DNA from: an uncultured Pseudomonadota bacterium
Lineage (GTDB): Bacteria; Oederibacteriota; Muellerivitia; Muellerivitales; Muellerivitaceae
Direction of reading: 5' to 3'
Assembly (NCBI GenBank): GCA_963843375.1
Contig: CAWJKT010000029.1
Coordinates: 13,710-77,709 of the forward strand
DNA length: 64,000 bases
This document shows, one piece after another, positions 1-35,151 of this stretch. The stretch's first letter is position 1; every line of letters starts with the position of its first letter. A program made the translations under genes and the position numbers. The notes under the pieces are model-generated. The model did no database searches, had not been told where the DNA came from, and was given only the letters and a program-made list of their open reading frames with translations.

Positions 1-174
1 CACCACATCCAGCCCTTCGGCTTTCTTTGCTCGCGCGGCTTCCAGCATCGAAAAGGTTTTCCCCACGCCCGGAGAGGCGCCGAAAAAAATCTTTAGCTTA
101 CCCCGTTTTTCCTGGGCCGCTTCCATTTGGACGCGATTGAGAAGCTGGTCGGGATCGGGTCGCTTGTCGTTCAT
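1..174 (-). CDS. kdpD: Sensor histidine kinase KdpD, N-terminal part (runs off the window)
   Basis: Not in the ORF track. The reverse strand reads MNDKRPDPDQLLNRVQMEAAQEKRGKLKIFFGASPGVGKTFSMLEAARAKKAEGLDVV, the KdpD N-terminus with its Walker A motif. Confidence 0.93.
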   Translation of the reverse strand, partial: MNDKRPDPDQLLNRVQMEAAQEKRGKLKIFFGASPGVGKTFSMLEAARAKKAEGLDVV

Positions 175-425
175 GAATGGATTTTACGGCCCGGCGAGGG
201 GGACTGTCCATGAAAGGGGTCATAAAATCTCTTTATTTTAATTTTTCCCATATGCCCCAGGTTTCCTTTTAACAGCATTCATATTGGGTTTCTCCGTATC
301 TTTTGAATACCGAACGCTCATGACGCAAGTCCTATCGCGTAATTAAAAGATCACAAAAATGATCTAGGGCTTAAGGGAGTGGTCAAAAAATATCCGTGGG
401 TAGGGGATATTGAGAGAGGTGAGCC

Positions 426-683
426 ATGAAAAAAATTGAGGCCATTCTGCGGCCGGCTGGGTTCGGCGAAATGGAGAGAATATTGAAAGGGTTCGGCTAT
501 CCGGGGATCGTTCCCGCAACCGCCCAAGAGTATGAAAAATCCAAAAGCATTTCCTGGAGTTGGGGTCCATTGGATTTTAAGGTGGAATTCCTCCCGGATT
601 TGAAGCTGGAAATATGGGGTCCGGACATGTTCGTGGATAAAATTTCCAAGGCGATGGCTCAACAACCCAGAACCGCGGCTTAA
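426..683 (+). CDS. Truncated, divergent PII-like protein (85 aa)
   Basis: MKKIEAILRP...GYPG...KVEFLPDLKLEI matches the PII N-terminal two thirds; the GDGKIF and RxRTG motifs are absent. RBS GAGAGG. Confidence 0.75.
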   Translation: MKKIEAILRPAGFGEMERILKGFGYPGIVPATAQEYEKSKSISWSWGPLDFKVEFLPDLKLEIWGPDMFVDKISKAMAQQPRTAA

Positions 684-856
684 AAACCATTGATATTAAT
701 CTTTCCCATATAGCTTGGGATTCCCTCTTAATAGCATCCATATCCGGTTTCGTCATATCTTTTCTTTGAAGAGAAAAAGATATGCCTGTGGATGACATGG
801 GTCATAAGTGGATTTTGAAGAAGGGGCGATCATTATATCGCCCGAAGGAGGATGCC

Positions 857-1003
857 ATGACAAGGATATTGTTTCTGTTGAGTCCGGTCATTTTCGGCGG
901 GCTGTGTCTTTTGATCGGGGAAACGTTCAGCTGGTTGAAACAAAAACGGGGAGAATCGGGTTTGACGAAAATGACGATTGTGTCTAACACGAGGAGGAAA
1001 TAA
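857..1003 (+). CDS. Small single-TM peptide (48 aa)
   Basis: AAGGAGG RBS, then MTRILFLLSPVIFGGLCLLIGETFSWLKQK... Confidence 0.55.
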   Translation: MTRILFLLSPVIFGGLCLLIGETFSWLKQKRGESGLTKMTIVSNTRRK

Positions 1004-1005
1004 TC

Positions 1006-1104
1006 ATGTTGGAATTTTGGTGTGTAGCTTTGTTCCTGGCCTTGTCCGTTATAACGGTTGGTTTGATCGGCCTGTTGGACAAGATGATGGGAGGGGAACC
1101 ATGA
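1006..1104 (+). CDS. Small single-TM peptide (32 aa), coupled to kdpF
   Basis: AGGAGG RBS, then MLEFWCVALFLALSVITVGLIGLLDKMMGGEP; the stop overlaps the kdpF start (ATGA). Confidence 0.7.
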   Translation: MLEFWCVALFLALSVITVGLIGLLDKMMGGEP

Positions 1105-1190
1105 GCGCGGTTTACTTGATCAGCGCGGTCGTCTCGGGGGGGCTTCTGGTTTACCTGGTAATTGCTTTGTTGAAGCCGGAGTGGTTTTAA
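1101..1190 (+). CDS. kdpF: K+-transporting ATPase subunit F
   Basis: MSAVYLISAVVSGGLLVYLVIALLKPEWF carries the YLxxALxxPExF signature and lies directly before kdpA. Confidence 0.92.
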   Translation: MSAVYLISAVVSGGLLVYLVIALLKPEWF

Positions 1191-1250: not shown

Positions 1251-3044
1251 ATGACGACCAATCAATGGCTTCAGATCGCGGCGTATTTCGTGGTCCTTTT
1301 GGTTTTGTCGATACCCTTAGGCACTTACATGGCAAAGGTTTACGAAAATAAGCCATTTTTCCTGGAGAAGCTGTTCGGATGGCTTGAAAAATTAATTTAT
1401 AAAATTGCGGGCGTCCAACCAGACAAGGAAATGGATTGGAAAGGGTATGCCCTAGCGATGCTTCTTTTTAATATCGTGGGGGGATTAATCCTTTACGCGA
1501 TCCAACGGTTCCAGGCCTCCATGCCCCTGAACCCAGCCGGTCAAAGCGCGGTGCCGCCGGACTTGGCCTTCAATACCGCCATCAGCTTCATCACTAACAC
1601 CAATTGGCAGTTTTATGGCGGTGAAACCACCATGAGCTATTTCACCCAGATGGCGGGATTGGCGGTTCATAATTTTCTTTGTGCCGCATCGGGTATGGCA
1701 ACCTTGGTGGCCCTTATTCGGGGCATTGTCCGAAAAGAATCGAAATTTCTTGGGAATTTTTGGGCCGATATGACCCGGGGAACCCTTTATATCCTCTTGC
1801 CCTTGAGCATTCTCTTTACCCTGGTCCTCATCCAGCAGGGGTCTCCTCAAACCTTCGCCAACACCGCCACCGCCACCTTGGTCCAGCCAACTTCCTATGA
1901 CCAGCCGGTAACGAATGCCCAGGGTGCGCCCGTGACGGGCAAGGACGGCAAGCCGGAAATGACGCATGTGGTTGTCACGGAACAACCTATTTCCCTGGGG
2001 CCAGTGGCTTCCCAGGAAGCCATCAAGATGCTCGGAACCAATGGGGGCGGTTATTTCAACGTGAACTCCGCCCATCCTTATGAAAACCCCACTCCTCTCA
2101 CCGACTTTTTGGAACTATTGGCGATTCTTTGGATTCCCGCTGCATTGTGCTTCACCTTTGGAGCTATGGCGAAAGATATGCGGCAGGGCTGGTGCATCCT
2201 GGCGGCCATGTTCCTGCTCTTGGCGCCCATGCTTTATCTTTGCGGCCAGCAGGAACAATCGGGTAACCCTCTTTTAAATAAGATCACCGCAGGCGCCCAT
2301 GGCGAGGTTCTCTCCGATGGTAATATGGAGGGGAAGGAAGTGCGTTTTGGAATTGTCAACTCGGCTCTATGGGCCACAGTGACTACCGCTGCTTCCAACG
2401 GATCGGTCAATAGTATGCATGATTCTTTCACTCCTCTGGGCGGAATGGTTCCCATGTGGATGATCATGCTGGGAGAGGTTTCCTTCGGTGGTGTCGGCTC
2501 GGGACTTTACGGCATGTTGGCTTTCGTCATTTTGGCGGTTTTCGTGGCAGGACTAATGGTTGGACGCACGCCTGAGTATTTGGGGAAGAAGATCCAAACC
2601 TACGAAATGAAGATGGCCTCTATTATGATCCTGATTCCGCCTCTTCTGGTTTTGATTTGTACGGCGGTGGCGGTGGCCTCGGGCGGGGCGGGCACCAACA
2701 ATCCAGGGGCCCATGGTTTTTCAGAGCTTTTATACGCCTTTGATTCTATGTCCAACAATAACGGCAGCGCATTCGCGGGGCTTTCAACCAACACTCTTTA
2801 CAATCTCATGGGCGGAACGGCGATGTTTTTGGGTCGTTTCTGGCTGGCCATTCCAGTTTTGGCCATGGCGGGAAGTTTGGCAAAAAAGAAGGCCGTTCCC
2901 GAGAGCGCGGGAACCCTTCCGACCCACACGGTCCTTTTTACCATCATGCTGATTTCCACGATCATCATTGTCGGCGCTCTTACTTTCTTTCCAGCCTTGG
3001 CTTTGGGTCCTATTGTGGAGCACTTAAAAATGGTCCACATGTGA
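1251..3044 (+). CDS. kdpA: K+-transporting ATPase subunit A
   Basis: Filter motifs TNTNWQ, GTNGGG, SNGS and [18 protein letters not shown]. Confidence 0.98.
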
Positions 3045-5322: not shown

Positions 5323-5910
5323 ATGATGAATGAAATCGCGGTTCAATTGCGGAATTCATTTGTTTTCGTCGTGCTTTTCACGTTTTTGGTGGGGCTTCTC
5401 TATCCAGGGGCGATGACTTTAGTAGGACATGTATTGTTTCCCCGTCAGGCCTCAGGGAGCCTGATTACGGTGAATGGAAAAACAATGGGCTCGGAATTGA
5501 TCGGCCAGCCTTTTGACGACGTCAAATATTTTTGGAGCAGGCCCAGCGCGACCTCGCCCCAAGCCTATAATGCCGCTAATTCCAGCGGCTCCAACTTGGG
5601 GCCCACCAATCCCGATTTCATCACTTCAGTGAAAGGGAGGGTTGACACGCTGCGGAAGGCCGATCCGGACAAGGCGGAGGCTCCCGTTCCCATGGACCTC
5701 GTGACGGCTTCCGGATCCGGCCTGGATCCGCATATCAGCCCGGCAGCGGCCGAATACCAGGTGTCCCGCGTGGCGAAGGCCCGGAACCTCGCCCCCGCCA
5801 AGGTTGAAGAATTAATCGCGCAGAACACCGATGGGCGTTGGCTTGGCTTTATTGGGGACCCGGGTGTGAATGTGTTGAAATTAAATCTTGCGCTGGATTC
5901 CATCAAATAA
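5323..5910 (+). CDS. kdpC: K+-transporting ATPase subunit C
   Basis: [27 protein letters not shown] and [11 protein letters not shown] motifs. Confidence 0.97.
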
Positions 5911-6197: not shown

Positions 6198-6210
6198 GAA
6201 AAGATTTCGG

Positions 6211-6413: not shown

Positions 6414-7061
6414 TCAGGGGGGAGCCGTGAATCCGTTCGCGGAACCTTTGCGTTGGCGTTTGAATGTGGGCGTGGGGGTGTTCTCGCCTATGGCAGGCGC
6501 GTTCACGTCCCATTGGACATCATCCTTGTTGCGCCAATAGTCCTCATTGATCTCGGCGAAGGTTTTTCCAGAAGCCCGCCGTTGAATGATGTCTTTCGGA
6601 TCGCGCCCGTAATATTCGGACAGGAATTTCAAATTGGCTAAATTGATCAAATCCGCATCGGTCATGTTGAAGGGGTTTTGCCGGTTTTTGTATTCCCCAT
6701 AAACCTTTTCAAAAGGCGTGTGGCTTGTGTCAAAGGTAAGGTAAGTATAAAAAACCAAGGGATTTAAACGGAAATGATAAGCCACCTGCATCCAGTTCAA
6801 GCCGCTGGAATGGACATTCGTTACCGATTCGGGTCCCAGGTTGTTTCTTTGGGCCATGAAAAAAACAACCGGAAGTTCCTCATCCGTTATGCCGGTGGTC
6901 TTGGCATCGGCTACCTGTTGTTCCGAAACCTTGAAATAATCCTGAAGGGCTAAATGGTAGTTGTCGCCCTCCGCCATAGCCTTTACCGAAAATCCCACTG
7001 TCGCCAAAAGAATTAAGATAAAAAGCCTTATTCGTCGGGTGTTCGATAGGTTCATTTTCAT
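6414..7061 (-). CDS. Secreted hypothetical protein
   Basis: Sec signal peptide (AMA cleavage), 215 aa, no family recognised. Confidence 0.75.
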   Translation of the reverse strand: MKMNLSNTRRIRLFILILLATVGFSVKAMAEGDNYHLALQDYFKVSEQQVADAKTTGITDEELPVVFFMAQRNNLGPESVTNVHSSGLNWMQVAYHFRLNPLVFYTYLTFDTSHTPFEKVYGEYKNRQNPFNMTDADLINLANLKFLSEYYGRDPKDIIQRRASGKTFAEINEDYWRNKDDVQWDVNAPAIGENTPTPTFKRQRKGSANGFTAPP

Positions 7062-7604
7062 CTGGATTTAGAGCTCCTTTGGCCGATGCCATGGATTTAA
7101 TGTTTTTGGTAATCGGCACAAGGCTCAAAATATAACCTAGTTCACGAGGTCTTGTCTATTCCGTAAAAGCTCTCGATGGTTTGTATTTCTTGGTTTCTTC
7201 CCGAAGAAAGTTTTCAAAATCATTTGCCAATTGGATAGAAAAAAACAAAAGGTGAACCGGTAGATAATTTAAAACGCTGAGCCAATGGGCGGATTTAAAA
7301 ATGAATTAGAACAACTTCTTCTTAATAAAATAACAACAATTTAATGTGGCCATCCTGACAAATTAAAAATGCCGATAGGTTTTGTTGTTGGTCTGCGCGC
7401 GGGCCCTCCGGAGTTTTCAAAAAAAAATAAATTGAAAATTAATTTCAAAAACAACCTCGTTAGTTTGCCGTTAGTTTTTTTATTTTTATTGTTAGTAAGT
7501 TGTTATGAAATGTTGGAAAGAACAATTTAGGTCAGACGCACACAAATTTGTGTTTTCAAATTTAAATTTGTGATTGTTTTTGATGGATTAGCTCCTTGTT
7601 AGGA

Positions 7605-7621
7605 TTGGCATGAGTGTTGCT
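7605..7621 (+). promoter_or_regulatory. sigma54 -24/-12 promoter of porin 1
   Basis: TTGGCATGAGTGTTGCT fits TGGC-N7-TTGC. Confidence 0.8.
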
Positions 7622-7810
7622 TTTGTGTTAGGTGCATATAGGTTCCGGGCGGAAGAAATTCAAGCCCCGGATGGAGGGAAGAGACGAGTTGAGAATCAAA
7701 GGCTGAAAAAGGAGGGAGGCGCTTTCCTGGCGGGTCGGGATCAACTGATCTAAAAGGGGGCGGGTTCCTCAAAATTTAACCCTGGAAATTGGGGAAAGGT
7801 GGGTGTTTTT

Positions 7811-9463
7811 ATGAGGTCGAGTAAGATTAAAAAAAGGATGGGCCAAGGAATTTCGCTGTTCTTTTTCTTGGCAGTAGCCCTATTCGGAGCCGGGGGGAGA
7901 GCCTGGGCGGATGATGCCGCTGCCGCAACCACGCCCGCAGCCACGCCTGCGGCGACGGCAGCACCCACTTCATTGATGGGCTTCATGAATTATGCGGACT
8001 TCACTTGGGTGAATGGTAACACCCACGAGGTGGACTTCCCCTTGGCGGGGAAAGTTTGGTCACCGGAGTTCCTTTTCGACACAAACTACGCCTACGATTT
8101 CGCTCGTCCAAACGACCATGTGATTTCGGGATCCACTTGCACCAACATCAGCAATCAGGTGGTCTTGGAGCATTTGGGATTTGGAGGTGACGCATGGCTT
8201 GACAACGTCCATTTGCGTATTATGACCGAATTCGGCATGTACGCCACGGAGGTGCCAAGGGACGACGAGACCCCGGCCAGGGGCTCTTGGGCTGTCGTGC
8301 CGGGAGTCCAGTATCTTACTGAGGCTTACGGCGGTTACCACTTTGATATCGCTGGCACGGATGGCATCAACATCGATTTCGGCCAGTTTCCGTCCTATGT
8401 CGGCCTTTACAGCTTCTATGACTCGGAAAACTGGACCTATCAGGCCTCTTACGTGTCATCCAACACTCCCTGGTTCTTTACGGGGGAACGCACCCAGATA
8501 TTCCCGAATGACAGATTTAAAATCGAGCTTTGGCTTATCAACGGCTGGCAGACTTACAACGAATTCGATGAGGGGTTGGGAAATGTGGGCCTCAATTTCG
8601 GCTGTGAACTCCGTGGCGCGCCGAATCCGAACCTGGTCTTGATTTCCAACGATTACATTGGTCCGGACAATCCCGATTCGCCGCAATGTATCAAGTCCCA
8701 CACGGACGACAGCATTGTGTGCAAATATTTCGATGACCCGAAATCAGGCGGTCTGGACAAGATGGCCTTCTCCTTGACTTGCGACGCGGGTATGCAACAA
8801 GGGCCTTTGTATGTGGGAGGGTCACCCACCAGTCCTGCAGCCATATATGACAGCGAAAGCACGGTATATGGTAACGGTCCTTCGGACATAGGAATTGGGG
8901 AAAATGGCAACCCGACGGGTTATGGGCCCATTAATGCGCCGGCCTATACCGTCAACAGCGCGTACGTTACCGTTGGTCCCGGAAACAAACCCGGACAATA
9001 CGCGGAATATTTCCTTGGAACCATGGCATACGACCGCATGTGGTTCGCCCACGATACCATCGCCATTACACTTGGCGGCGGTTGGATGACGAATCCCGGA
9101 CGTTACTTGGCTCTGCTTCCGGATATCGACGGGGATACGGCCGCTCAATACGGTGGTGATCCTATCGCCACAGCCGCGTTCAACGAAGAACCTGGGCTTC
9201 CTTGGACCTGCTGGGATTACGACATCAGTCTTCAAATTATGTCCAACGAATATATCACCTGGGATTTCGAATATACCCATCGCAACTCCAGCGTGCCTTA
9301 CTTCGTCGGTCCGGGTGGCGTCACTTCCTCCGACGGGTGGACGGCGGGAGCGGCTACGGGATCAACCCAAGCCAACGGGGGTGGCGGTGCCTTTACTTCT
9401 TATCATCCGGATCTCGTGAACTATGAGGACATCCTTGTGGGTGCGGTGATGATCCACATCTAA
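7811..9463 (+). CDS. Outer-membrane beta-barrel protein (BBP2/DUF1597-like), copy 1
   Basis: Signal peptide; family-type motifs EAYGGYHF, FPSYVGLYS, NWTYQASYVSSNTPWFF and LWLINGWQ. Confidence 0.8.
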   Translation: MRSSKIKKRMGQGISLFFFLAVALFGAGGRAWADDAAAATTPAATPAATAAPTSLMGFMNYADFTWVNGNTHEVDFPLAGKVWSPEFLFDTNYAYDFARPNDHVISGSTCTNISNQVVLEHLGFGGDAWLDNVHLRIMTEFGMYATEVPRDDETPARGSWAVVPGVQYLTEAYGGYHFDIAGTDGINIDFGQFPSYVGLYSFYDSENWTYQASYVSSNTPWFFTGERTQIFPNDRFKIELWLINGWQTYNEFDEGLGNVGLNFGCELRGAPNPNLVLISNDYIGPDNPDSPQCIKSHTDDSIVCKYFDDPKSGGLDKMAFSLTCDAGMQQGPLYVGGSPTSPAAIYDSESTVYGNGPSDIGIGENGNPTGYGPINAPAYTVNSAYVTVGPGNKPGQYAEYFLGTMAYDRMWFAHDTIAITLGGGWMTNPGRYLALLPDIDGDTAAQYGGDPIATAAFNEEPGLPWTCWDYDISLQIMSNEYITWDFEYTHRNSSVPYFVGPGGVTSSDGWTAGAATGSTQANGGGGAFTSYHPDLVNYEDILVGAVMIHI

Positions 9464-9570
9464 AGTGAAGGTGGGAAAGAAGTTTTAAAAAGAGAGTGAA
9501 CGTGAAGCGCCGGGCCGGATTTCAGGGATTCGGCCCGACGCCCTCTCCTCCAAGTTGATCGGCAGGAACG

Positions 9571-24373: not shown

Positions 24374-24380
24374 ACTGAAA

Positions 24381-25789: not shown

Positions 25790-26755
25790 GTGACGACGAT
25801 GAAAATAATTCAAGCATTCCTTTTGGCCGGGACTATGGCCGCGGGAACACAGGCTGGGGCCACTGATTATCAATGGACCAAGGTGGTGGCAGGTGAAGAA
25901 ATTACGGGGCTTAGGGCGACTGGAATGATCATTCCCCAGGAAGGAGCCTTGAAGAACCAATCAGCCAATACCCAAGGGCGGGTTTTAGCTGTCCTTAAAA
26001 GGGAAGGGGATGAGGTCGTACCGGGTACGCCGCTTTTCCTGGTCAATGACTCGGAATGCATCTCCTTGGCCCAGGAAATGCGCCTAGCCCAGAAAAACGG
26101 AGTCCAAGAATTAATTGATGCGGCTGCCGAACGTGAAAAGCAATTAGGTGTCAAAGTGGAAAACGGCCAATATGAAATTGTTTCCCTTTATACGGGTGTG
26201 ATCACCCATATCAACGTCAATTCGGGAACGAATTACAACCCCGGGGACCAGTTGGCAAACATTCTGGATATGCACAAGCTCACCGTGGAATTGGATATTG
26301 CTGAAAAATATGTATCCGATCTTCACCGGGGCCAGAAGGTCACATTCCAATTGGCTTCCGATTCCCTGACTTCCTATACCTCCACCATTCGGACAATTGT
26401 GCCGACGATTGATCCTAACCAGCGCACGACCATCGTGCGCCTGAAGCCGGTAACCCTCCCGGAGGATGTCAACCTTTCCGAGTTGGTATACGGCATAGTC
26501 CAAACCGGAGCTAATCAGCCTGTTTTAAAAATTCCATCTTCGGCCCTGGTTTTCAGCCACGACCAGCAGTATGTCCTGAAAGGCGATGAAAAAAACCACA
26601 CCGCGGTTCCGGTGCAGGTGGTAAATGAAACGGATGATCTAAGTTCGGTGAGGCCGGTCAACCCGGGAGAATTGAAAGAAGGAGATTCGGTGGTCAGTAC
26701 CGGCGCCATTTATTTATTCAGTGAAATGAAGGACAGCGATGGTGGAGGGAGTTGA
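25790..26755 (+). CDS. RND periplasmic adaptor (MFP)
   Basis: Lipoyl-like halves, PTIDPNQRT, IPSSALV, LKEGDSVV. Confidence 0.88.
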   Translation: MTTMKIIQAFLLAGTMAAGTQAGATDYQWTKVVAGEEITGLRATGMIIPQEGALKNQSANTQGRVLAVLKREGDEVVPGTPLFLVNDSECISLAQEMRLAQKNGVQELIDAAAEREKQLGVKVENGQYEIVSLYTGVITHINVNSGTNYNPGDQLANILDMHKLTVELDIAEKYVSDLHRGQKVTFQLASDSLTSYTSTIRTIVPTIDPNQRTTIVRLKPVTLPEDVNLSELVYGIVQTGANQPVLKIPSSALVFSHDQQYVLKGDEKNHTAVPVQVVNETDDLSSVRPVNPGELKEGDSVVSTGAIYLFSEMKDSDGGGS

Positions 26756-26874: not shown

Positions 26875-29800
26875 ATGAATAAGCTATTACTGCGCTGGTT
26901 CCAGTTCCAAAGGGAAAGTTTTGTTCTTTTCCTATTCCTTCTGATGTGCCTGGTCGGGTATGGAGCCTTTATCGCCTTTAACAGTGAAATACAAGCTTTT
27001 CCCGAGTTCACTAACGTCCAAGTCCAAATCCAGACTCTTTTTCCGGGAAAAGCCGCGGAGGAGGTGGAAAGACTGGTCACTATTCCCCTGGAAGTCGCCA
27101 CCCGAAGTGTTCCCGGACTCATCAATTCCCGTTCCATCTCGGAGTTCGGCTTAAGCGTAATTACCCTGACTTTTGACGATGATATCGCGGACTGGAAAGC
27201 TCGAAGCGATACAAACCTCTATATGGCTAACGCCACCCTGCCTAACGGGATCCAGCCGGGACTTTCAGCCGACAGTACGCCTTTGGGCGAAATATACCGC
27301 TATACCCTTGAAGGGGACCTGCCGGTAAATGAAAAACGGATGATCCAGGACTGGACCCTGGAAAGGGCCTTCAAGGGAATCTCCGGCGTAGCCGATGTGG
27401 TGGGCTTCGGGGGTCCAACCCGAACCATCGAGGTGAAAATCGATGTGCCCCGAATGAAATCTCTGGGACTCAGCGTCGCCCAAATCGCCCAGAACTTGGG
27501 AGCCAATCATGCCAATGCCGGAGGCAGCATCATCACCCATGGCGAGGAAAGTTATGTGGTGCGTTCCATCGGGTTGTACCAGGATCCTGTAGAGCTGGAA
27601 GACGCCGTCATTGCCACCCAGGGAAACACTCCGATCCGGGTGCGGGACGTGGGTACGGTGAGCATCGGAAACCATATTCGCTTGGGGATGGTAGGGCGGG
27701 ACCACGAGGATGACGTGGTGGAAGGTATCGTCCTTTTAAGGATAGGGGCAAACACCCTGCGAACCTGTGCGCTCATCCGGGATAAAGTTAAGGATTTGAA
27801 TGAGAATATTCTCCCGAAGGGCTGCAAACTGGTCAATTATTACGACCGTACCGACCTCATTCGTCGCAGCAGTCATACAGTTTTCCACAATATCTTTTTC
27901 GGCATCATGCTGGTCTGCGTACTTTTGATCCTTGGTTTCGGAGTCCAATATTGGGCCATGTCGGCGGGAGTGGCTTTGATTATTCCCTTCGCGCTCTTGG
28001 TGGCGTTCGTGGGCCTTCACTTGGAAGGTTATAACCCCAACCTGATTTCGCTAGGCGCGGTGGATTTCGGGATCATTGTGGAGACCGCCATTTTCGCGGC
28101 CGAAGCGGTGCTAGCCACGATTTCAAAACCCAAACAGCATGATGAAAATATCGTCTTGTCTCTGGCCGATGTGCTGGGCCCGGCCCTGCTTTGCGCGTTC
28201 CTTTTGTTGATCGCCTTTATTCCCATCATCAGCCTTCAGCGGGTGGAAGGCCGTATTTTCAGGCCTTTGGGTATCACCCTCATTTCCGCCCTGATCGGTG
28301 GCCAAATGGGCGCCTTCATTTTTATCCCTTTGGCCACCTCCTGGGTGCCGATGGGACCCCAGCCCACAAATAAAGCGGACCGTTTTTTTGTGTGGGTCAT
28401 GCAACGATGCCGCAAGGTAATGCTTTTCTTCGATCGTTGGAAGAGGCTGTTCCTGATCGCAGGGGTCTTCTTCGCGGCAGTCCTGGTGGCCCTCAATTGG
28501 GGTCTGGGAGGAGAATTCCTCCCCACCATGAACGAGGGCAATCTTTGGGTCCGTATCACCGCTCCTCCCACCATCTCTCGTGAGGAAGCGGTAAGGCTTG
28601 TCCATAAAATCCGTGAAAGGTTCATGGAAATTCCCGAGGTCCGGACGGTCATCTCTCAGACGGGCCGCCCGGACGATGGTAGCGACGTCAACGGGTTCGA
28701 CGTCACGGAATTCGATGTGGACCTTGGCGATCCCGAAAATTGGAAAAGCGCCAAGGATATTAATGGGTTCATTGCCGAAGCCGAAGACAAGATGAAAGAC
28801 ATCGATGGTGTGGATTTCAACTATTCCCAATATATCAAGGACAACGTGGATGAGGCCATCAGCGGGGTCAAGGGCGAGTTGGTAGTTAAGATTGTCGGGC
28901 CAAAATTGGAACAACTTCAAAACATCGCCGATGAAATCGAGGCGATTGTTAAAAAAGTGCCGGGCGCGGAGGACGTGGGAGCCGAAAAAATATTACAGCA
29001 ACCTGAACTCCAATTCGTCATGGACCGTCCTGCTCTGGACCGTTACGGCATCCAGGTAGCCACGGCGGAGGATGTCTTGGAGTCCGCCCTTTCGGGCAAG
29101 TGGTCCACCCAGATGGTGGATGACCAGGGCCGCTATGTGGACGTGCTCGTGAAGCCCAGCCTGCCTAACCATGTGACTGAGAATATTCTTTCCTCCCTGC
29201 CCGTCCTCTCTCCGGGTGGCGCCGAGATCCCCTTGGGAGAAGTGAGCCATCCAAAGTTGGTCGAGGGTGTTTCGGCTATTTATCGGGAAGAAGGGGACCG
29301 CCGTATTGCCGTTAAATGTTCCGTCCGCGGTCGGGCGGTTGTAGATTTCGTGAAGCAAGCGGATGCAATGATCAGGCAGAAAGTGACTTTACCGGCCCAT
29401 TATCATATGTCTTGGTCTGGTTCTTTCGAGAATGCAAAGAGGGCAAGCGCACAACTGGCTATCCTTGTTCCACTTTGCCTGACAGCCATGGTGATCATTC
29501 TTTATACCTGGTTCAAGGATTGGACCCTGGTAGGACTCTTATTATGGGAAATACCCTTTTCGGGTCTGGGTGGATTATCAGCCATCCGGTTAGCCGGACT
29601 CAACTTCAGCATTTCGGCGGCAGCTGGGGGAGTTGTTTTGATCGGAGTCTCATTCCTCACAGGAATGATGCTTATTTCCGAGTGGGTTCACGTAAGGGAC
29701 GCCTGGAAAGCTTTAGAAGAAAAAGGACGGAGCATCATTATTTCAAGCGGGGTGGCGATTATCGGCTTAATTCCCGCTTCTTTCTCCCACGGCATGGGAT

Positions 29801-29937
29801 CGGAAACGGCCAGGCCCTTTGCGGTGATGATTATGGGCGGGTTGACCAGTTCACTCTTTTTTTCCCTTACCTTGCTCCCGGCCTTTTTGAAAAAAATTGA
29901 GGGAAGGTATAGGAAGGATAAGGGTCATGCGGATTAA
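26875..29937 (+). CDS. CzcA/CusA-family RND permease, divergent
   Basis: AAEEVERLVTIPLE, RSISEFGLS, ISLGAVDFGII, EGRIFRPL, GSETARPFA. Confidence 0.92.
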   Translation: MNKLLLRWFQFQRESFVLFLFLLMCLVGYGAFIAFNSEIQAFPEFTNVQVQIQTLFPGKAAEEVERLVTIPLEVATRSVPGLINSRSISEFGLSVITLTFDDDIADWKARSDTNLYMANATLPNGIQPGLSADSTPLGEIYRYTLEGDLPVNEKRMIQDWTLERAFKGISGVADVVGFGGPTRTIEVKIDVPRMKSLGLSVAQIAQNLGANHANAGGSIITHGEESYVVRSIGLYQDPVELEDAVIATQGNTPIRVRDVGTVSIGNHIRLGMVGRDHEDDVVEGIVLLRIGANTLRTCALIRDKVKDLNENILPKGCKLVNYYDRTDLIRRSSHTVFHNIFFGIMLVCVLLILGFGVQYWAMSAGVALIIPFALLVAFVGLHLEGYNPNLISLGAVDFGIIVETAIFAAEAVLATISKPKQHDENIVLSLADVLGPALLCAFLLLIAFIPIISLQRVEGRIFRPLGITLISALIGGQMGAFIFIPLATSWVPMGPQPTNKADRFFVWVMQRCRKVMLFFDRWKRLFLIAGVFFAAVLVALNWGLGGEFLPTMNEGNLWVRITAPPTISREEAVRLVHKIRERFMEIPEVRTVISQTGRPDDGSDVNGFDVTEFDVDLGDPENWKSAKDINGFIAEAEDKMKDIDGVDFNYSQYIKDNVDEAISGVKGELVVKIVGPKLEQLQNIADEIEAIVKKVPGAEDVGAEKILQQPELQFVMDRPALDRYGIQVATAEDVLESALSGKWSTQMVDDQGRYVDVLVKPSLPNHVTENILSSLPVLSPGGAEIPLGEVSHPKLVEGVSAIYREEGDRRIAVKCSVRGRAVVDFVKQADAMIRQKVTLPAHYHMSWSGSFENAKRASAQLAILVPLCLTAMVIILYTWFKDWTLVGLLLWEIPFSGLGGLSAIRLAGLNFSISAAAGGVVLIGVSFLTGMMLISEWVHVRDAWKALEEKGRSIIISSGVAIIGLIPASFSHGMGSETARPFAVMIMGGLTSSLFFSLTLLPAFLKKIEGRYRKDKGHAD

Positions 29938-30031: not shown

Positions 30032-30286
30032 TTACACAATCCCTTTGCGTGCCTCAGAAGTTTGGGTAATGATGCCGGCTATCACCCAAAAATCAAAAGT
30101 GATCATGATGGAACAATAGAGGGTCATTGCCCAGGCGAAAAGCTGGTGCTGTTCCCATAACTCGGTCCAGGCTTGAGCTAAAGTATAGTCGGGGAGTTGT
30201 AAAAGATTAATTAAGCCTGCAGAGACGATGGCTACACCGGCCCCGGTCAATAATCCCATTACTGTTAACAACTGTGATTTTTTCAT
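30032..30286 (-). CDS. Small two-TM membrane protein
   Basis: AAGGAGG RBS; two hydrophobic segments. Confidence 0.75.
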   Translation of the reverse strand: MKKSQLLTVMGLLTGAGVAIVSAGLINLLQLPDYTLAQAWTELWEQHQLFAWAMTLYCSIMITFDFWVIAGIITQTSEARKGIV

Positions 30287-30556
30287 GGCGTGCCTCCTTC
30301 TTAATAAAATGCTAACACAACTATTAAAATCTTAATAATAAAATTCAATAAATCGAGTGTTAGTATTAATAAAGTATTAGTAAGTTGTTAGGATTTTGCG
30401 ATTGAAATAACATTTTTGTGGATTCGGAACCTGTAAAACTGAAATAACCTCAAAGTGAGGATCTCTTTGGGAAAGTCTATGCTTTGAAGTTTTGGCCGGG
30501 CAATATCGAATTTTTATAAAGCGGTGTGAATCTCAACAGCGTTTGCTGGAGAAAGG

Positions 30557-32536
30557 TTATAACACCCGCACGGGCACAATCATCATATTCACGCCCTTGA
30601 AGAGAAGACGGCGCTGGATTTCCAAGGACGTTTGGTTGTGCAATAGGTTGGTCCAAAGAGATTCCTTTGCAAAGATAAGTTTCCCGGAAAAGAATGTCGC
30701 GTCGGGAAATTCGGCCGAAACTATTTCGCATAACCTTTCCATTCCCGCGATGACGTCGATATCATCCACGTGCCTATAGTCCGACCGGTAGCCCATTTTG
30801 TGGGCCAGGGCCACGTATTTTTGAAGGTTCTCTTCAGTGTTTTTTCTCAAGTTATCCAGTTCTTCAATCCCCTTGAACTTACTGGAGTCGATCCGGCCGA
30901 TGGAAACGAAAATAAAATCCTGGAAACGGTTGGCGAAAAGTTTTTGGATCGAAAAGATGGCATGAATGCCAAGTCCGTTATAGCGCTCCACCATTACCAC
31001 CGCGACAGGTTTGGATTTGTCACAGGGCCCTAAGGCGGGTTCGCTGGCGTCCCGGTCGGGCAAAGGGAGATTGATCAAGGCGTCATCCAAACGGGTCAAG
31101 GCTTGTTGGACCCCTCGGTAATGGCGTTTGACCAAGTAACAAAGGATGATCAGGACAGTGGTCATCAGGATGGTCACGCAACCGCCTTGCAGGAATTTCG
31201 ACATTACGGTGGCTACCAAGATGATGGAAGTCAGTGTGAGCCCCAAGCCGTTGATGAAAAATCGGCGCGGCCAGTCTTTCTGATCATGGCGAGCCTGCCA
31301 CCAATGCACACACATCGAAAGCTGGGATAAGCTGAAGGTGATGTAAACATTGATAGCGTAAAGAAGGATCATGACATCCACATTTCCCTTAGCGATGATG
31401 AGAATGATGAGGGAAAAGATGCCCATAACCAAGATGCCATTCATGCGCACAAGGCGGTGAGAAAGGTTGGCAAAGCGGTGGGGAAGCCAGGAATCCACCG
31501 CCATATTGGAAAGGACATTGGGGCCGTCGATAAAACCGGTCTGGGCGGCAATAAATAAAAGAAGACCTTCGGACAGGAGGGTTACGGTGATGAGGGTCTT
31601 GCCCATCGCCCATCCCCCAAAGGTCCATGAACCGAATACCGCCTTAGCCAATGTGCCGTTCATGGTCTCATTGGGAATGGTGGGAATATCACAAAGCATG
31701 TATAAGAGAAGGATACCGCCAGCGGTGAAGGCCAGAGAAGTGGCCATGTACATCATGGTGCGTTTTCCCGTCTGGACTCGGGGTTCCCTCAGGTTTGCCA
31801 ATCCGTTAGACACGGCTTCAATTCCCGTGTAGGTTCCGCCGCCCAAGCTATAAGCCGTAAAGAAGATAACCAGAAACCCCCAAAGCCCCAATGGACCGCT
31901 GATAATTTCGTGGGTTTCCTTAAAAGTACTTTGGACTACGGGAACAATTTGCCCGGAATGGCCGAAGAGCCCAGACATGATCAATACGATATGGGTAGCC
32001 ACGAAAACAAGGAATATCGGAAGAAGGGCCTGAACCGATTCCTTGATACCCCGCATATTCAGCCAAATGAGCAGAATCATCAAAAGAACTTCGACCCAAA
32101 GTTTATAAGTGGTGAAGAGGGGAGGCATAAAGTCGGCGATGGCGTCTACTCCCGCGGCGATGGAAAGGTTAATAGTAAGCACATAGTCCACGATAAGGGC
32201 CGAACCGGATATCAGGCCGGCTACGGGATGCAGCAGCTTGCTGGCCACAACGTAACCACCGCCGCCCGAGGGAAAATATTCGATGACTTGGCTATAACTG
32301 GCCGAAATAATGAAAACGGTTGCGGCCACAGCGATGGCCAAGTAAAGGGCGATGTGATGATATTGGGCGCCCAGAGCTTTATAAGTTTCTTCCGGGCCAT
32401 AGGCGGAGGAGGAAAGGCCGTCAGCGCCCAGGCCAACCCATGCCAGGAAGGCAATGAGGCTTAATTTGTGGAAGACATTTTGATCGAGGGGATTCTTGGC
32501 CTTGCCGAAAACGAGCTCTTTAACTTTTTCAACCAT
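30557..32536 (-). CDS. KimA/YdaO-like APC K+/H+ symporter
   Basis: GADGLSSSAYGPEE, GGGYVVA and TGIEAVSNG; cytosolic domain with LLHNQT; c-di-AMP riboswitch upstream. Confidence 0.88.
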   Translation of the reverse strand: MVEKVKELVFGKAKNPLDQNVFHKLSLIAFLAWVGLGADGLSSSAYGPEETYKALGAQYHHIALYLAIAVAATVFIISASYSQVIEYFPSGGGGYVVASKLLHPVAGLISGSALIVDYVLTINLSIAAGVDAIADFMPPLFTTYKLWVEVLLMILLIWLNMRGIKESVQALLPIFLVFVATHIVLIMSGLFGHSGQIVPVVQSTFKETHEIISGPLGLWGFLVIFFTAYSLGGGTYTGIEAVSNGLANLREPRVQTGKRTMMYMATSLAFTAGGILLLYMLCDIPTIPNETMNGTLAKAVFGSWTFGGWAMGKTLITVTLLSEGLLLFIAAQTGFIDGPNVLSNMAVDSWLPHRFANLSHRLVRMNGILVMGIFSLIILIIAKGNVDVMILLYAINVYITFSLSQLSMCVHWWQARHDQKDWPRRFFINGLGLTLTSIILVATVMSKFLQGGCVTILMTTVLIILCYLVKRHYRGVQQALTRLDDALINLPLPDRDASEPALGPCDKSKPVAVVMVERYNGLGIHAIFSIQKLFANRFQDFIFVSIGRIDSSKFKGIEELDNLRKNTEENLQKYVALAHKMGYRSDYRHVDDIDVIAGMERLCEIVSAEFPDATFFSGKLIFAKESLWTNLLHNQTSLEIQRRLLFKGVNMMIVPVRVL

Positions 32537-32585
32537 AACGGCCTCCAATAGAATTTGGGCCGTCCTCTACTCGACGCGCCCTTCG

Positions 32586-32712
32586 ATGCCTGCGAGGTTA
32601 GCTGTCGGGCTCGGCGCGAAAGGTTCGCCGTTCTTTCCCATCAAGTCGGGTTAGAAATTAGCCCCAAATACCTGGGTCCCCCGTTCGCTCTAAACAAGCG
32701 ATTCGGCTATAA
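32586..32712 (-). ncRNA. c-di-AMP (ydaO/yuaA) riboswitch
   Basis: Minus strand: AGCCGAA...CGGGGGACCCA...UUGGGGCUAAU...GCCGAGCCCGACAGCUAACCUCGCAGGC. Confidence 0.92.
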
Positions 32713-32915
32713 GCCGAGAATCTTTATACTTTTTTAATATGAAATCAATGGAAATAGGAAAGAGGGTCGAAATTAATAAAATTTTAACATCTAAAAAAAT
32801 TACATATTATAAATATTTCCAATATTTCAGCCCCGCTTTTGAAGCCATCAGAGGACCAGGTGAAGATTTGTCACCAATTTGGATATAAAAATTGTGTTTT
32901 TTCAGCTGAAAGGGG

Positions 32916-34754
32916 TCAACCGACAATAATCAGGGCAGCGGATTCGGGAAGACGTTCCGCCAGGTTCTTAAGCATTCGTCCTCTAACCATTCGCCAAAAG
33001 AAAGTCCGCTTGGAGGAACCCACAAACACATGGGTAACCCTGAGGTTTGTCGCGGCTTCGGCAAGGGAATGGCCGGCATCTTCCGCCATCCTCCAAATAG
33101 GAATGCAACCGACCTTGTGTTTTTGAAGGACAGCGCAGGAACCCGTCAAAACATTAATGGCTTCGGGGGATGGCTTGATTTCCTGGGGAAGAAAAAGGCC
33201 CGGCATTTCATCGATGTAAATCACATAAACATTAACCCGTTTTAAGCCCTTGGCGTAAGTGGCCGCGTCTTGAAGGAGCTTTTCATTGACGAACCTTAAC
33301 GCCACGATAATGGGCGAGGATTCCATGGCGGAAGCCTCGATCGCTTCTTCCAGGGTGAGTATATTGGAAGCTTCCGGAAGGTTCGCCACCCTGGATTCGG
33401 CTTCGGCAAATTGAAGTACCGCTTTTTGGGACGCCTTAACGCGATGCCAGACGCCGACCCCCACCAAGATTGTGGCCAAGGTGCCTCCAAACATAAGAGC
33501 TTCAGGCTTGTGGAACATGTTGATAACCCACGCGGCCAAAAGGGCCAGGGTGGTGAAGGCCCCCGTCCAAAATTTTATTCCCCGGACCCCATCCCTCCAG
33601 CGAAGCTTATCAATGGCCAGGGAGGAGAGGGATAGGGTGCCCAATAAGCCGAAATTGTAAAGGTCGCCAAGCGCGTCCACGTTGGCCCGAGTGATAAGAA
33701 TGATGGCCATAGGGACCAACCCCGAGATGAGAATTGAAAAATAGGGCGTTCCAAGAGTCGGATGGCGTTTTCTTAAAAATGATGGGAGGAAGCCCAGATC
33801 CGAAAGTCGGACGTTTACGTGGTAGTTCCCGACGATAGCGGTATTGCAAGCCATGAAAAGCAAAGACGAAGCGGCTAATACCACCGCGACCCCCATCAAA
33901 GGTCCGCCGATTTGAAAACCTAGGGCGGAAAGTAGGGAATCGGATTGAGTTTGTTTCACCGAATCCGGAAGCAAGTAAAGCACCACGGAAGTCATGGGAG
34001 AGGATACCAAGGCGATGGTCACAATGACCCACATCATGGCTTTGCCGGCGGTGGCTTTGATAGGGAAGCGCATAGAACCGGATATCTGGGCGACCGATTC
34101 AAGGCCCGAATAAGCCAGCCAAGTAGTGGCATAACCAATCATGACCGCTCCAAAAGTAATGGGAATGCCGGGATGAGTAATGCTATTCCACCAACCTGAC
34201 CAGGAATAATGGGGATTGAAGGCGATTTTTAAAAAGGCCCAGCCCAAGAGAAGAAAAGTGACGATGATTTCCACGGTGGCGAAACTCGAGGTTACGGACG
34301 CCGATTCCTTGATGCCGATCATATTGATTAGCACCAGACAGAGGAACAAAACCATGGAAGCGGCAATAACCAAATCCTTGGTTTCGGGCATGAGACTGGA
34401 AAGGTAATAAAGACCTGAGACGCCCGATATGGCCGAAGTAAGAAAATAATCCACCGTAATGAAAGCCCCCCCGACCAGGGGGAGAAATTCCAGAGCGGAA
34501 AAGGCTTCCCGCACGATCGATACCACTCCGCCGCCATCGGGGCAACGCTCACAGATTTCCACGTATTTAAGAGCGATGGAAACGAATACGCCGGTAGTGA
34601 TGAACTGTGCCAGGGTGGCCAGGTTGCCGATGGAGCCAAATAGGATGCCGGGAGTGTAAAAAACGGATGTTCCGATGTCCGCATAAACGATGGCGAAAAC
34701 CAGTACCCAGCCTAGCTGATGAACTTTCACGGATGTTGAATTGGAATCGGACAC
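32916..34754 (-). CDS. APC permease with C-terminal USP-like domain (KimA-related)
   Basis: YADIGTSVFY, PDGGGVV, YSGLESVAQ; USP-like tail VFVGSSKR...; GTG start after GGAGG. Confidence 0.85.
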   Translation of the reverse strand: MSDSNSTSVKVHQLGWVLVFAIVYADIGTSVFYTPGILFGSIGNLATLAQFITTGVFVSIALKYVEICERCPDGGGVVSIVREAFSALEFLPLVGGAFITVDYFLTSAISGVSGLYYLSSLMPETKDLVIAASMVLFLCLVLINMIGIKESASVTSSFATVEIIVTFLLLGWAFLKIAFNPHYSWSGWWNSITHPGIPITFGAVMIGYATTWLAYSGLESVAQISGSMRFPIKATAGKAMMWVIVTIALVSSPMTSVVLYLLPDSVKQTQSDSLLSALGFQIGGPLMGVAVVLAASSLLFMACNTAIVGNYHVNVRLSDLGFLPSFLRKRHPTLGTPYFSILISGLVPMAIILITRANVDALGDLYNFGLLGTLSLSSLAIDKLRWRDGVRGIKFWTGAFTTLALLAAWVINMFHKPEALMFGGTLATILVGVGVWHRVKASQKAVLQFAEAESRVANLPEASNILTLEEAIEASAMESSPIIVALRFVNEKLLQDAATYAKGLKRVNVYVIYIDEMPGLFLPQEIKPSPEAINVLTGSCAVLQKHKVGCIPIWRMAEDAGHSLAEAATNLRVTHVFVGSSKRTFFWRMVRGRMLKNLAERLPESAALIIVG

Positions 34755-34768
34755 GCAAACGCCTCCGA

Positions 34769-34926
34769 AGCCTGCGGGGTTAGCTGTCGGGCTCGGCGGG
34801 AATGCTCGCCGGTTCAATCCTTTTATTAAGAGGATGAAACTTCGCCCCGAAAAAACTGGGTCCCCCGTTTGGCCTTCCGTTTGTTCCATGGAACAGGAAC
34901 ATTGCGTCAAGGCCAATTCGGCTATT
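34769..34926 (-). ncRNA. c-di-AMP (ydaO/yuaA) riboswitch
   Basis: Minus strand: AGCCGAA...CGGGGGACCCA...CGGGGCGAA...GCCGAGCCCGACAGCUAACCCCGCAGGC. Confidence 0.92.
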
Positions 34927-35151
34927 AAGGTGAATCTTTATACTTTTTTAATATTTAATTTCAAGGGGATTATATTATCTGGAATCCTTCCTTGAGGTGA
35001 AAAAAGCCTTTTTTGTAATGGAAAACGACTCTTTACGATGGCCATTTTCCCATAAAAAAGAAAGCCGAAATGAACCTAATTGAGAAGCAATAACAAACCG
35101 CATTCGAGTTAAAGTGGGGACAAGGTTTGGTTATGGTTGGTGAATTCCCAA

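Follow-up and report, generated by a model that had tools for sequence, protein, structure and literature searches.

The DNA analysed here, called the window below, is a 64,000-nucleotide (nt) stretch of contig CAWJKT010000029.1 (C29) in the genome of an uncultured bacterium (G000; the other G codes denote genomes, C codes contigs and L codes loci). It carries the genes of the potassium pump KdpFABC and of KdpD/KdpE-type regulators, together with genes for outer-membrane porins, nitrogen-regulatory PII proteins, a resistance-nodulation-division (RND) exporter and transporters led by cyclic di-AMP (c-di-AMP) riboswitches. One conserved operator precedes kdpFABC, a PII operon and the RND operon, and its four copies in the window are the four best matches in the whole genome to a matrix built from sites of relatives. 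We judge the chances to be about even that the locus is a lineage-specific expansion of the KdpDE potassium-starvation regulon. A first-pass annotation of the same DNA had proposed a single regulon that ties K+ scavenging to nitrogen and energy status. This proposal is partly right: the operator suggests a KdpE-box regulon that joins Kdp, PII and RND genes, flanked by two other regulatory layers, namely sigma-54 promoters at two porins and at an APC permease with a PII domain (APC-PII), and riboswitches at two APC genes. No sensors of nitrogen and energy state are more widespread than PII proteins. K+ and NH4+ are rivals for shared transport routes, and little is understood of how bacteria balance them; in E. 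coli, the known bridge is PtsN acting on KdpD. The locus offers a concrete wiring, with one operator common to a K+ pump, PII proteins and an RND exporter, relatives that have a PII gene in the kdp operon, and one relative with a fusion of a KdpD sensor to an EIIA(Ntr)-type domain. As the organism has not been cultured, any test needs a heterologous host.

Gene calls combined an open reading frame (ORF) listing with Pfam, NCBIfam and Rfam searches. The pentamer CTAAC/GTTAG occurs 47 times in positions 1-35482, and 26 of these copies are intergenic, in a region where intergenic DNA makes up 20.5% of the bases. Phased direct repeats of the form CTAAY-N5-7-YTAAY number 10 in the window (nine of them intergenic), as compared to 3.3 ± 1.8 in block shuffles (maximum of 8 in 200). 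A tandem CTAAC array was ruled out: CTAACCTAAC at one mismatch or fewer gives 1 match where 1.6 are expected, and Tandem Repeats Finder returned nothing relevant. The operator is 22 nt long, with two CTAAY half-sites at an 11-bp period positioned about 10 nt 5' of TATATT; CTAAC is one half of it. A YTAACAGC search of the window and of the relatives' loci gave 15 aligned sites that read YTAACAGCAWC-CTAATCGG, about 9-10 nt, TATATT. Drawn from G000, G010, G011, G013 and G005, they stand ahead of kdpF, of the PII and RND operons and of some porin genes. In the alignment, a distal TTTCCTAACA is followed some 22-24 nt on by YTCTAACAGCAWC-CTAATCGG and, after another 9-10 nt, by TATATT. This is the arrangement of an OmpR/PhoB-type operator, with CTAACAGCAAC-CTAATCGG at an 11-bp period, 10 nt ahead of TATATT and at the -35 position; Pho boxes and other class II sites of the OmpR/PhoB family have such a half-site layout. 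The sites in the window are as follows.

266-287, plus strand: KdpE-type box copy 1, CTTTTAACAGCATTCATATTGG, before a short PII-like ORF; rank 4 with the relatives matrix and rank 6 with the kdp-only matrix
725-746, plus strand: KdpE-type box copy 2, CTCTTAATAGCATCCATATCCG, in the promoter of the peptide-kdpFABC operon; rank 1 with the kdp-only matrix
21370-21461, plus strand: promoter of the PII operon, with distal CTAAC repeats, a proximal box at 21425-21446 (CTTCTAACAGCAACCTAATCGG) and then TATATT
23666-23687, plus strand: KdpE-type box of the RND operon, CTTCTAACAGCAATTTAATGCC; rank 3 with the relatives matrix and rank 5 with the kdp-only matrix
30036-30288, minus strand: gene of an 84-residue membrane protein, with CTAACAACTTACTAAT-type repeats upstream at 30365-30395, possibly a fifth, weaker box promoter

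The ranks come from two matrices. With the first, built from 11 sites of relatives only, the four window boxes take ranks 1-4 among the 8,101,280 positions of the genome, with scores of 34.2, 25.0, 23.5 and 22.6, the next best position scoring 19.5; the box of the PII operon is the best match genome-wide (34.2). The second matrix was built only from the six boxes found ahead of kdpF in other genomes (G010, G011, G013, G001, G018 and G021), and it places the four window sites at ranks 1, 3, 5 and 6, the PII-operon box being third. Orthologous boxes are found ahead of these same operons in G010, G011 and G005, and ahead of porins in G011 and G005. The box also stands before kdpF where a single kdpDE pair is found beside kdp (G013, G018 and G021), and its simplest reading is therefore that of a KdpE operator; we infer that a KdpE-type regulator binds it. 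The near-identity of the recognition helices in the three KdpE-like regulators counts in favour of an expanded regulon.

All four subunit genes of the pump are present in the order F-A-B-C, and KdpD2 shows the full sensor-kinase domain set, paired with an OmpR-type regulator.

1-174, minus strand: 5' end of kdpD1 (first 58 codons), divergent from kdpFABC; the rest of the gene and kdpE1, a third kdpE, lie upstream of the window on the contig, as found by tblastn
426-683, plus strand: truncated PII-like ORF of 85 residues, PF00543 at 21.8 bits, below the cut-off, without B-loop and C-terminus
1006-1104, plus strand: membrane-peptide ORF of 32 residues, overlapping the start of kdpF; homologous ORFs are read in G010 and G011
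1101-1190, plus strand: kdpF, a 29-residue peptide read from the translation
1251-3044, plus strand: kdpA, Pfam KdpA at 793 bits
3049-5262, plus strand: kdpB, Pfam E1-E2 ATPase and HAD domains
5323-5910, plus strand: kdpC, Pfam KdpC at 257 bits
6209-6243, plus strand: strong terminator-like hairpin with a 16-bp stem, 3' of kdpC
6414-7061, minus strand: exported protein, from the ORF listing
9723-10418, plus strand: RR1, a KdpE-like OmpR-type response regulator (best NCBIfam match KdpE, 257 bits) with no kinase gene adjoining
15067-15762, plus strand: RR2, a KdpE-like OmpR-type regulator (Pfam) that pairs with KdpD2
16030-18744, plus strand: KdpD2, a full-length kinase with Pfam KdpD, DUF4118, GAF, HisKA and HATPase domains; NCBIfam KdpD at 803 bits
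18917-20017, plus strand: exported protein with an FGE-sulfatase domain (PF03781, 180 bits), a conserved member of the block described below with no role assigned, syntenic in G010, G011, G005 and G072

KdpD and KdpE are the best NCBIfam matches of these regulators, at scores below the equivalog cut-offs (803 vs 1123 bits for KdpD, 257-261 vs 325 bits for KdpE), which is the divergence expected for a distant phylum. The genome has exactly two kdpD genes, both at this locus; the PF02702 match of kdpD1 lies at C29:13188-13817. Each gene of the upstream pair contains one apparent frameshift, at C29 position 10403 in kdpE1 and 12495 in kdpD1, at a T5 or A4 run. At 10403, one base fewer is read in contigs of the public runs X1 and X2 and in one of two X3 contigs, the other X3 contig showing the deletion at 10404; at 12495, one base fewer is read in X1 and X3 contigs (runs from two studies). 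A pseudogene status was ruled out on this account, the contigs of three other public runs reading one base fewer; kdpD1 and kdpE1 are therefore intact, and the frameshifts are 1-base homopolymer errors of the assembly.

Two small membrane-peptide ORFs lie between the short PII-like ORF and kdpF, and two of the box promoters are followed by such an ORF, of 32 and 33 residues, as the first cistron (1006-1104 and 21527-21628). The short PII-like ORF itself is flanked by two copies of a ~90-nt kdp promoter segment (DNA repeat D16), and neither G010 nor G001, a genome of the same genus, has a counterpart of it. It is probably a relic paralogue of PII1 that was inserted along with a duplicate of the kdp promoter (DNA repeats D10, D12 and D16). 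The gene content given by the first-pass annotation (kdpFABC, two kdpD, two KdpE-like regulators, three porins and two riboswitch-led APC genes) is real, apart from its fourth PII gene, which is this truncated ORF.

The PII and RND operons follow downstream of KdpD2.

21527-21628, plus strand: 33-residue membrane peptide, first cistron of the PII operon, conserved in G010
21666-22022, plus strand: hyp118, an exported protein of the PII operon
22134-22514, plus strand: PII1 (PF00543)
22709-23074, plus strand: PII2 (PF00543)
23122-23457, plus strand: PII3 (PF00543)
22568-22595 and 23564-23580, plus strand: terminator-like hairpins of the PII operon
23738-24373, plus strand: HTH-DUF1232 protein (Pfam)
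24315-25772, plus strand: TolC-like outer-membrane efflux protein, OEP (Pfam)
25790-26755, plus strand: membrane fusion protein, MFP, the adaptor (Pfam)
26875-29937, plus strand: RND1, similar to heavy-metal efflux (HME) pumps (Pfam, NCBIfam)

A hypothetical gene on the minus strand stands between the FGE gene and the 33-residue peptide. The first hairpin, located between PII1 and PII2 and with an 11-bp stem, could divide the PII operon or lower expression of its distal part.

The gene neighbourhood, a survey of which the first-pass annotation had called for, is kept across genera. The block porin-RR-kdpD-FGE-hyp118-PII1-PII2-PII3-(HTH-DUF1232)-OEP-MFP-RND1 is found in the same order in G010, G011, G005 and G072; KdpD2 orthologues are 71-75% identical in the first two and 57-58% in the other two. 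Of 99 genomes of the phylum, 41 contain kdpC. RND1 orthologues of at least 63% identity occur in six of the 99 genomes, from four genera, and in all six they are on the contig of kdpC, 6-37 kb away and on either side of it. Strong homologues of the porin were found in 6 of the 40 relatives searched, and in three genomes (G013, G014 and G071) the porin gene is inside the kdp unit, between kdpC and kdpD. Since the porin sits in the kdp unit of relatives and the block has the order porin-RR-kdpD, the block looks like a duplicated 3' half of the kdp unit that gained PII and RND genes. In the ancestral unit, a box promoter would have led kdpFABC, a porin gene and kdpDE. The 3' half of this unit, from the porin to the kdpD and kdpE genes, would have been duplicated, and the KdpE-type operator would then have come to drive two more operons, one for a PII trio from three clades and one for an HME-like RND system.

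These data also bear on the possibility that ion-transport genes were simply gathered here by chance or by the insertion of an island, each module being regulated separately. G001, of the same genus, is collinear with the window except that it lacks positions 5911-30556 and reads kdpABC-PII-KimA-like-APC2, so that this segment has the look of a single insertion that separates kdpC from the KimA-like gene; moreover, G+C falls to 0.43-0.44 at 6-8 kb and 20-22 kb, and the riboswitch genes, the sigma-54 genes and amtB-glnK are clearly under their own controls. On the other hand, the shared operator is specific, with ranks 1-4 among 8.1 million positions, it is kept at orthologous promoters in four other genomes, and the linkage to kdpC holds in six of six. 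Owing to these operator and synteny results, mere co-location becomes much less likely, and we give it very little credence, the least of all the explanations weighed here.

The three block PIIs are canonical members of the family. They score 89-99 bits with PF00543, and the B-loop GDGKIF and the C-terminal RI(R/S)(T/S)GE, which we take to be nucleotide-binding elements, are kept in all three. Residues 1-109 of PII1 align without gaps to the solved PII structure 1pil and include the Tyr that corresponds to E. coli GlnB residue 51. In G001, the kdp-linked PII gives a gapless alignment to the solved PII 2eg1, with Phe replacing this T-loop Tyr. Judging from these features, the block PIIs look functional. 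A tree of 38 PII sequences resolved three supported clades, with PII1, PII2 and PII3 each in a different one. Clade A (97/98 support) contains PII1, the kdpC-linked PIIs of G001, G011 and G075 and PIIs beside an Amt-like gene. Clade B unites PII2 with PIIs adjoining a GGACT gene, and clade C holds the amtB-linked GlnK, PII3, which is its sister, and a copy from contig C8. What follows kdpC in the 41 kdpC-bearing genomes, all of which were examined, is listed here.

PII gene 33-70 nt downstream: G001, G011 and G075
PII gene 1.5 kb downstream: G002
Porin: G013, G014 and G071
Convergent riboswitch-led APC gene: G005, G020, G012, G016, G008, G009, G018, G001 and G075 (after the PII gene in G001 and G075)
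kdpD: most genomes outside the family

PII genes are numerous in this lineage. The genome has nine PF00543 matches, six of them on the contig of the window, and there are up to 13 matches per genome in the family. Relatives (L045, L050, L054, L057, L059 and L061, from G001, G072, G075, G018, G021 and G073) have modules of two kinds. In one, an Amt-like gene, 31-35% identical to the AmtB of the window, is followed by two or three PII genes; in the other, a PII gene is followed by a GGACT (gamma-glutamyl cyclotransferase-like) gene. Two further loci of the window, beyond the 35-kb range of the first-pass annotation, contain PII sequences.

44919-46889, plus strand: APC permease with a C-terminal PII domain (APC-PII); sigma-54 promoter at 44855-44870 and CTAAC-N7-CTAAC repeat at 44798
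52836-54626, plus strand: canonical amtB-glnK pair

A second APC-PII copy is found on contig C3 of G000 (178813-180093). The fusion is common in public metagenome data, both domains being present in 119 of the best 120 matches, some of which bear the name 'amino acid transporter/nitrogen regulatory protein PII'. No likeness to KimA is seen in the permease part. The amtB-glnK pair has neither a riboswitch nor a box.

Such abundance raises the question of whether PII1-3 are ordinary nitrogen regulators, extra GlnB/GlnK copies acting on enzymes elsewhere, whose position by Kdp and RND genes is meaningless. All three match the canonical P-II models, PII3 is the sister of amtB-linked GlnK, and PII copies are many in the lineage. 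Against this, the PII operon carries a kdp-type box and not an independent promoter type, the order PII1-PII2-PII3 ahead of the RND genes is kept in four other genomes, and PIIs of the family are repeatedly paired or fused with transporters (kdpC-PII, Amt-like-PII, RND1'-PII and APC-PII). We find this explanation improbable, again much less likely in the light of the operator and the synteny.

RND1 deserves the label 'atypical' given to the system in the first-pass annotation, because it scores below the CusA/CzcA cut-off of TIGR00914 (687.2 vs 701.45 bits) and has a variant motif in transmembrane helix 4, DFGIIVETAIFAAEA. RND1 and its orthologues read DFGIIVETA(I/V)F(A/G)AEA; as compared with the motif of divalent-metal RND pumps, which we take to be DFG...DGA...VEN, the acidic residues are kept, with D changed to E and VEN to AEA. 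A related operon is found on contig C8 (240922-248061, minus strand), where two HTH-DUF1232 genes, OEP, MFP and RND1' are followed directly by a PII3-type gene. It has a weak box at 248107 and several frame breaks, and those in OEP and RND1' may be assembly errors. A search of public genome contigs with RND1 returned nine distant loci, 34-35% identical and from Chryseolinea, Obscuribacterales/Melainabacteria and a Chitinophagaceae metagenome-assembled genome, which are uninformative on distribution; a PII gene was nearby in one of the nine (L040) and kdp genes within 10 kb in none. The window also encodes RND2, a classical CusA/CzcA pump that passes the same cut-off (35483-39543, 772 bits) and whose adaptor has a heavy-metal-binding domain; its operon has no PII gene and no box. 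A gene for a PilZ protein is likewise found in the window beyond the 35-kb range.

Several observations weigh against a single expanded regulon with a nitrogen link. The relatives compared belong to a single phylum and mostly to one family, and the counts above are therefore non-independent. The kdpC-PII arrangement is rare (3 of 41 kdpC-bearing genomes) and is absent from the window, where only the truncated PII-like ORF precedes kdpF. When the kdp-linked PII was used to query metagenome contigs, none of six loci was beside kdp, three being PII-PII-GGACT and three amtB-PII. The block is dispensable, since the same-genus G001 lacks the whole of it and retains kdp. RND1 is of heavy-metal type, and a metal substrate unrelated to K+ or nitrogen is the default expectation. 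Kdp is not trimeric and fits poorly with the generalisation on PII targets in a 2023 review. Finally, the second half-site differs somewhat, block promoters favouring CTAATCGG and kdp promoters CWTATCC, and the recognition helices of KdpE1, RR1 and RR2, near-identical otherwise, differ at three residues that divide the RR1/RR2 type from the KdpE1 type (GRS vs V/I/T-Q-Y), so that the two KdpDE pairs may be insulated.

The last points lead to an explanation that we consider doubtful but serious, in which two insulated systems lie side by side. KdpD1/KdpE1 would run kdpFABC on K+, and KdpD2/RR2 (and RR1), with a changed signal such as a toxic mono- or divalent cation, would run a metal island of the PII-NG type, the boxes being alike by descent and the nitrogen/energy link being only the generic PII-NG association. 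CusA/CzcA is indeed the best family of RND1, the classical HME-RND with its heavy-metal-binding adaptor is 5 kb further on, and hyp118, which has no Pfam or NCBIfam match, gives weak leads in a protein-cluster atlas (scores of 0.84-0.85 only, below the 0.9 level), some to YHS metal-binding clusters. The Geobacter PII-NG and czcABC genes are described as Co(II)-induced and Fur-controlled (PMC7726332). However, the first half-site TAACAGCA is invariant in kdp and block promoters alike, and a matrix built from kdp promoters alone places those of the block third and fifth genome-wide. The box precedes porins in G011 and G005, and the porin is a kdp-operon gene in three other relatives. In addition, KdpD2 retains every KdpD domain, the block stays on the kdpC contig in all six genomes despite rearrangement, and the kdpC-linked PIIs are the nearest relatives of PII1.

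If the locus is an expanded KdpDE regulon, scarce K+ would lead KdpD1 and/or KdpD2 to phosphorylate KdpE-type regulators, which would bind the paired CTAAY half-sites at the -35 position and switch on the genes of the Kdp pump, of the three PIIs and of the RND system at the same time. The PIIs would then read ATP/ADP and 2-oxoglutarate and gate the co-induced transporters post-translationally. RND pumps are trimers, PII genes flank RND1-type genes twice here and the PII-czc pattern is known, which makes the RND pump the most plausible PII target. In the relatives with kdpC-PII, the Kdp pump or its kinase would be a candidate, PII acting on the kinase NtrB being the classical precedent. Cation traffic during K+ starvation would thereby be matched to nitrogen and energy status, for example by limiting NH4+ entry or cycling via K+ systems. 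NH4+ is said to cycle futilely through the E. coli Kdp pump. In yeast, NH4+ leaks via K+ routes and is toxic under K+ limitation (PMC1609136).

A stronger form of the expanded-regulon reading, which we hold to be unlikely, has the PIIs of this lineage directly gating cation transporters other than Amt: the kdp-operon PII would brake KdpFABC or KdpD, and a hetero-set of three PIIs would dock on the RND trimer, all induced through the KdpE operator. If this were true, 2-oxoglutarate and ATP/ADP would set K+ or NH4+ entry, as well as what is expelled, under K+ starvation; it would place K+ transport under PII control for the first time and explain in functional terms the association of PII-NG with RND pumps. 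The locus also provides a regulatory entry point to the PII-linked RND pumps, a puzzle ever since their discovery.

Two regulatory layers would act in parallel to the KdpE-type box, sigma-54 raising the outer-membrane porins, and also acting on the APC-PII promoter, and a fall in c-di-AMP releasing KimA-type uptake. The features of the porin region are the following.

7455-7621, plus strand: control region of porin1, with an inverted-orientation CTAACGGCAAACTAAC repeat (about 7459-7474), a ACAAATTTGT palindrome and the sigma-54 promoter TGGCATGAGTGTTGCT at 7606-7621
7811-9463, plus strand: porin1, BBP2 family (PF07642, 91 bits), with a terminator hairpin at 9570-9609 (hairpin family D11)
10659-12290, plus strand: porin2, BBP2 family (PF07642), with a terminator hairpin at 12388-12427
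12933-12948, plus strand: sigma-54 promoter of porin3, a perfect site
13130-14776, plus strand: porin3, BBP2 family (PF07642; ATG at 13130), with a terminator hairpin at 14874-14913

All three porins score 85-95 bits with PF07642 (cut-off 26.2) and have a signal-peptide-like N-terminus. Perfect sigma-54 sites, TGGCAT-N5-TTGCT (TGGCATGAG(T/A)GTTGCT), stand ahead of porin1, porin3 and APC-PII. These three perfect sites, as compared to 4.3 expected at one mismatch or fewer, are not above chance by number, and their support comes from position and conservation: the porins of G010, G005 and G033 have kept such a site, as has APC-PII in five of six genomes, with one mismatch in the sixth. The idea of sigma-54 porins thus stands for porin1 and porin3, with perfect and conserved sites, and fails for porin2, upstream of which there is no such site. 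The porin1 control region is 76-80% identical to the paralogous region before porin3 (repeats D7 and D9). The genome contains one rpoN. About ten PF00158 genes for sigma-54 activators were found in it, none on the contig of the window and none a clear orthologue of the activators of G033 (best identity 36-37%).

CTAAC repeats are found upstream of the sigma-54 promoters of porin1 and APC-PII. The repeat at APC-PII is kept in G010 and G012, and ATCAAG repeats take its place in G001, G018 and G075. The latter are ATCAAGRAA direct repeats with an 11-bp period (L044, L055 and L057), and a kinase-regulator pair that is missing in the window adjoins there. In G033, from another family, a sigma-54 porin is found beside two NtrC-type regulators, a HAMP-PAS kinase and a fusion of a KdpD sensor to a phosphotransferase system (PTS) EIIA domain (L028, G033:C46, 1913-8252). 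KdpD and EIIA(Ntr) make contact in E. coli, and the 544-residue KdpD-sensor::PTS EIIA-2 fusion may be a 'Rosetta stone' for this contact.

The leaders between the sigma-54 promoters and the porin starts (7622-7810 and 12949-13129, about 190 nt) are 80% identical between porin1 and porin3. In an alignment of five leaders, hairpin-forming stretches are partly conserved in G010 and G005. No Rfam match was obtained for the leader at gathering level; it may be a cis-regulatory RNA.

The other layer consists of two riboswitch-transporter units in tandem.

30557-32548, minus strand: APC1, a KimA-like K+ transporter (PDB 6s3k, E-value 9e-59)
32572-32718, minus strand: c-di-AMP riboswitch 1 (RF00379, 77 bits; cut-off 38)
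32916 to about 34754, minus strand: APC2, a distant APC transporter with a C-terminal extension, 24% identical to APC1
34755-34933, minus strand: c-di-AMP riboswitch 2 (RF00379, 61.5 bits; cut-off 38)

Both riboswitches are full length (model positions 1-134 of 134) and directly 5' of the ORFs, with no KdpE-type box at either gene. The match of APC1 to KimA spans residues 9-488 of 663, leaving the C-terminal domains unmatched. One diadenylate cyclase is encoded in the genome. Among seven loci of relatives searched, five contain a total of eight riboswitch matches and two contain none; seven of these matches are immediately 5' of orthologues of APC1 or APC2 (G001, G075, G072, G021 and G018), and the eighth (L050, 292-469) precedes no mapped gene. 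A riboswitch with a KimA-like orthologue is present in G001 and G075, and riboswitch-led APC2 orthologues in G001, G075, G072, G021 and G018.

Comparison with known systems shows which parts are familiar. The first-pass annotation knew of no characterised system of this composition. This holds in the literature searched, where neither kdp operons with a PII gene, nor porins associated with kdp, nor the APC-PII fusion were found described, most subscription journals lying outside the search, so that an earlier mention is possible; it does not extend to a PII gene beside a czc-type RND operon, already described as PII-NG. With E. coli KdpDE-kdpFABC, the locus shares the pump subunits, the KdpD domain set, an OmpR-type KdpE, regulators beside the pump and an operator 5' of kdpF. 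In contrast to E. coli, it has two KdpD and three KdpE-like genes, its KdpD and KdpE fall below the NCBIfam equivalog cut-offs, relatives G013, G014 and G071 have an outer-membrane porin in the kdp unit, and its operator, made up of direct CTAAY repeats in place of the -35 element, is also present on PII genes and an RND pump. The E. coli KdpE site is T-rich and further upstream.

The PII-NG type was described for a PII gene beside czcABC (Sant'Anna et al. 2009, as cited in PMC7726332; Geobacter GSU2134-2137); PMC7726332 calls it proteobacterial, with a role unexplained. As in PII-NG, PF00543 genes are immediately 5' of an OEP-MFP-HME-type RND operon, and on contig C8 a PII3-type gene follows RND1'. 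Unlike PII-NG as described there, there are three PII genes and not one, their clades are shared with non-RND PIIs of the family, one is sister to GlnK, and the control element is a Kdp-type box, not Fur or metal control. The placement of PII1-3 in three different local clades argues against one dedicated clade, in a tree that includes no PII-NG reference. As with GlnK-AmtB, a small PII gene forms one transcription unit with the gene of a cation transporter, and the kdpC-PII order of relatives mirrors amtB-glnK; the partner would differ, being a P-type ATPase complex or an RND pump, and the kdp-linked PII of G001 has Phe at the T-loop Tyr. The PII-regulated transporters tabulated in the 2023 review are AmtB/Amt1, NrtABCD, UrtABCDE and SbtA (ammonium, nitrate, urea and bicarbonate), with no K+, RND or APC target.

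With the B. subtilis ydaO/kimA riboswitch and KimA (6s3k), the locus has in common an RF00379 aptamer directly 5' of a KimA homologue, kept in relatives; it differs in having two tandem riboswitch-transporter units, the second transporter being 24% identical to the first, and in a match to KimA confined to residues 9-488. S. aureus KdpD binds c-di-AMP through its USP domain, where a Ser and a Tyr matter (PMC4686210). The USP region of KdpD2, SAS-X20-WTAVY, keeps both residues; it differs from the S. aureus protein by a Phe to Trp change, and the E. coli-type motif RXXXR-X8-WXAVY can be read in the region as well. Some Kdp loci annotated in Bacteroidota combine a split KdpD sensor with a kinase encoded apart from it and a response regulator that depends on sigma-54. 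The sigma-54 promoter before a BBP2 porin is a feature in common with them, as is the G033 porin beside NtrC-type regulators and a KdpD-sensor protein, whereas the regulators adjoining here are OmpR-type, with no sigma-54 activator on the contig. Overall, every part belongs to a known family, and what appears to be new is how the parts are connected: PII and RND operons behind a Kdp-type operator, a PII trio drawn from three clades, PII genes in kdp operons, and sigma-54 porins derived from a kdp-operon porin.

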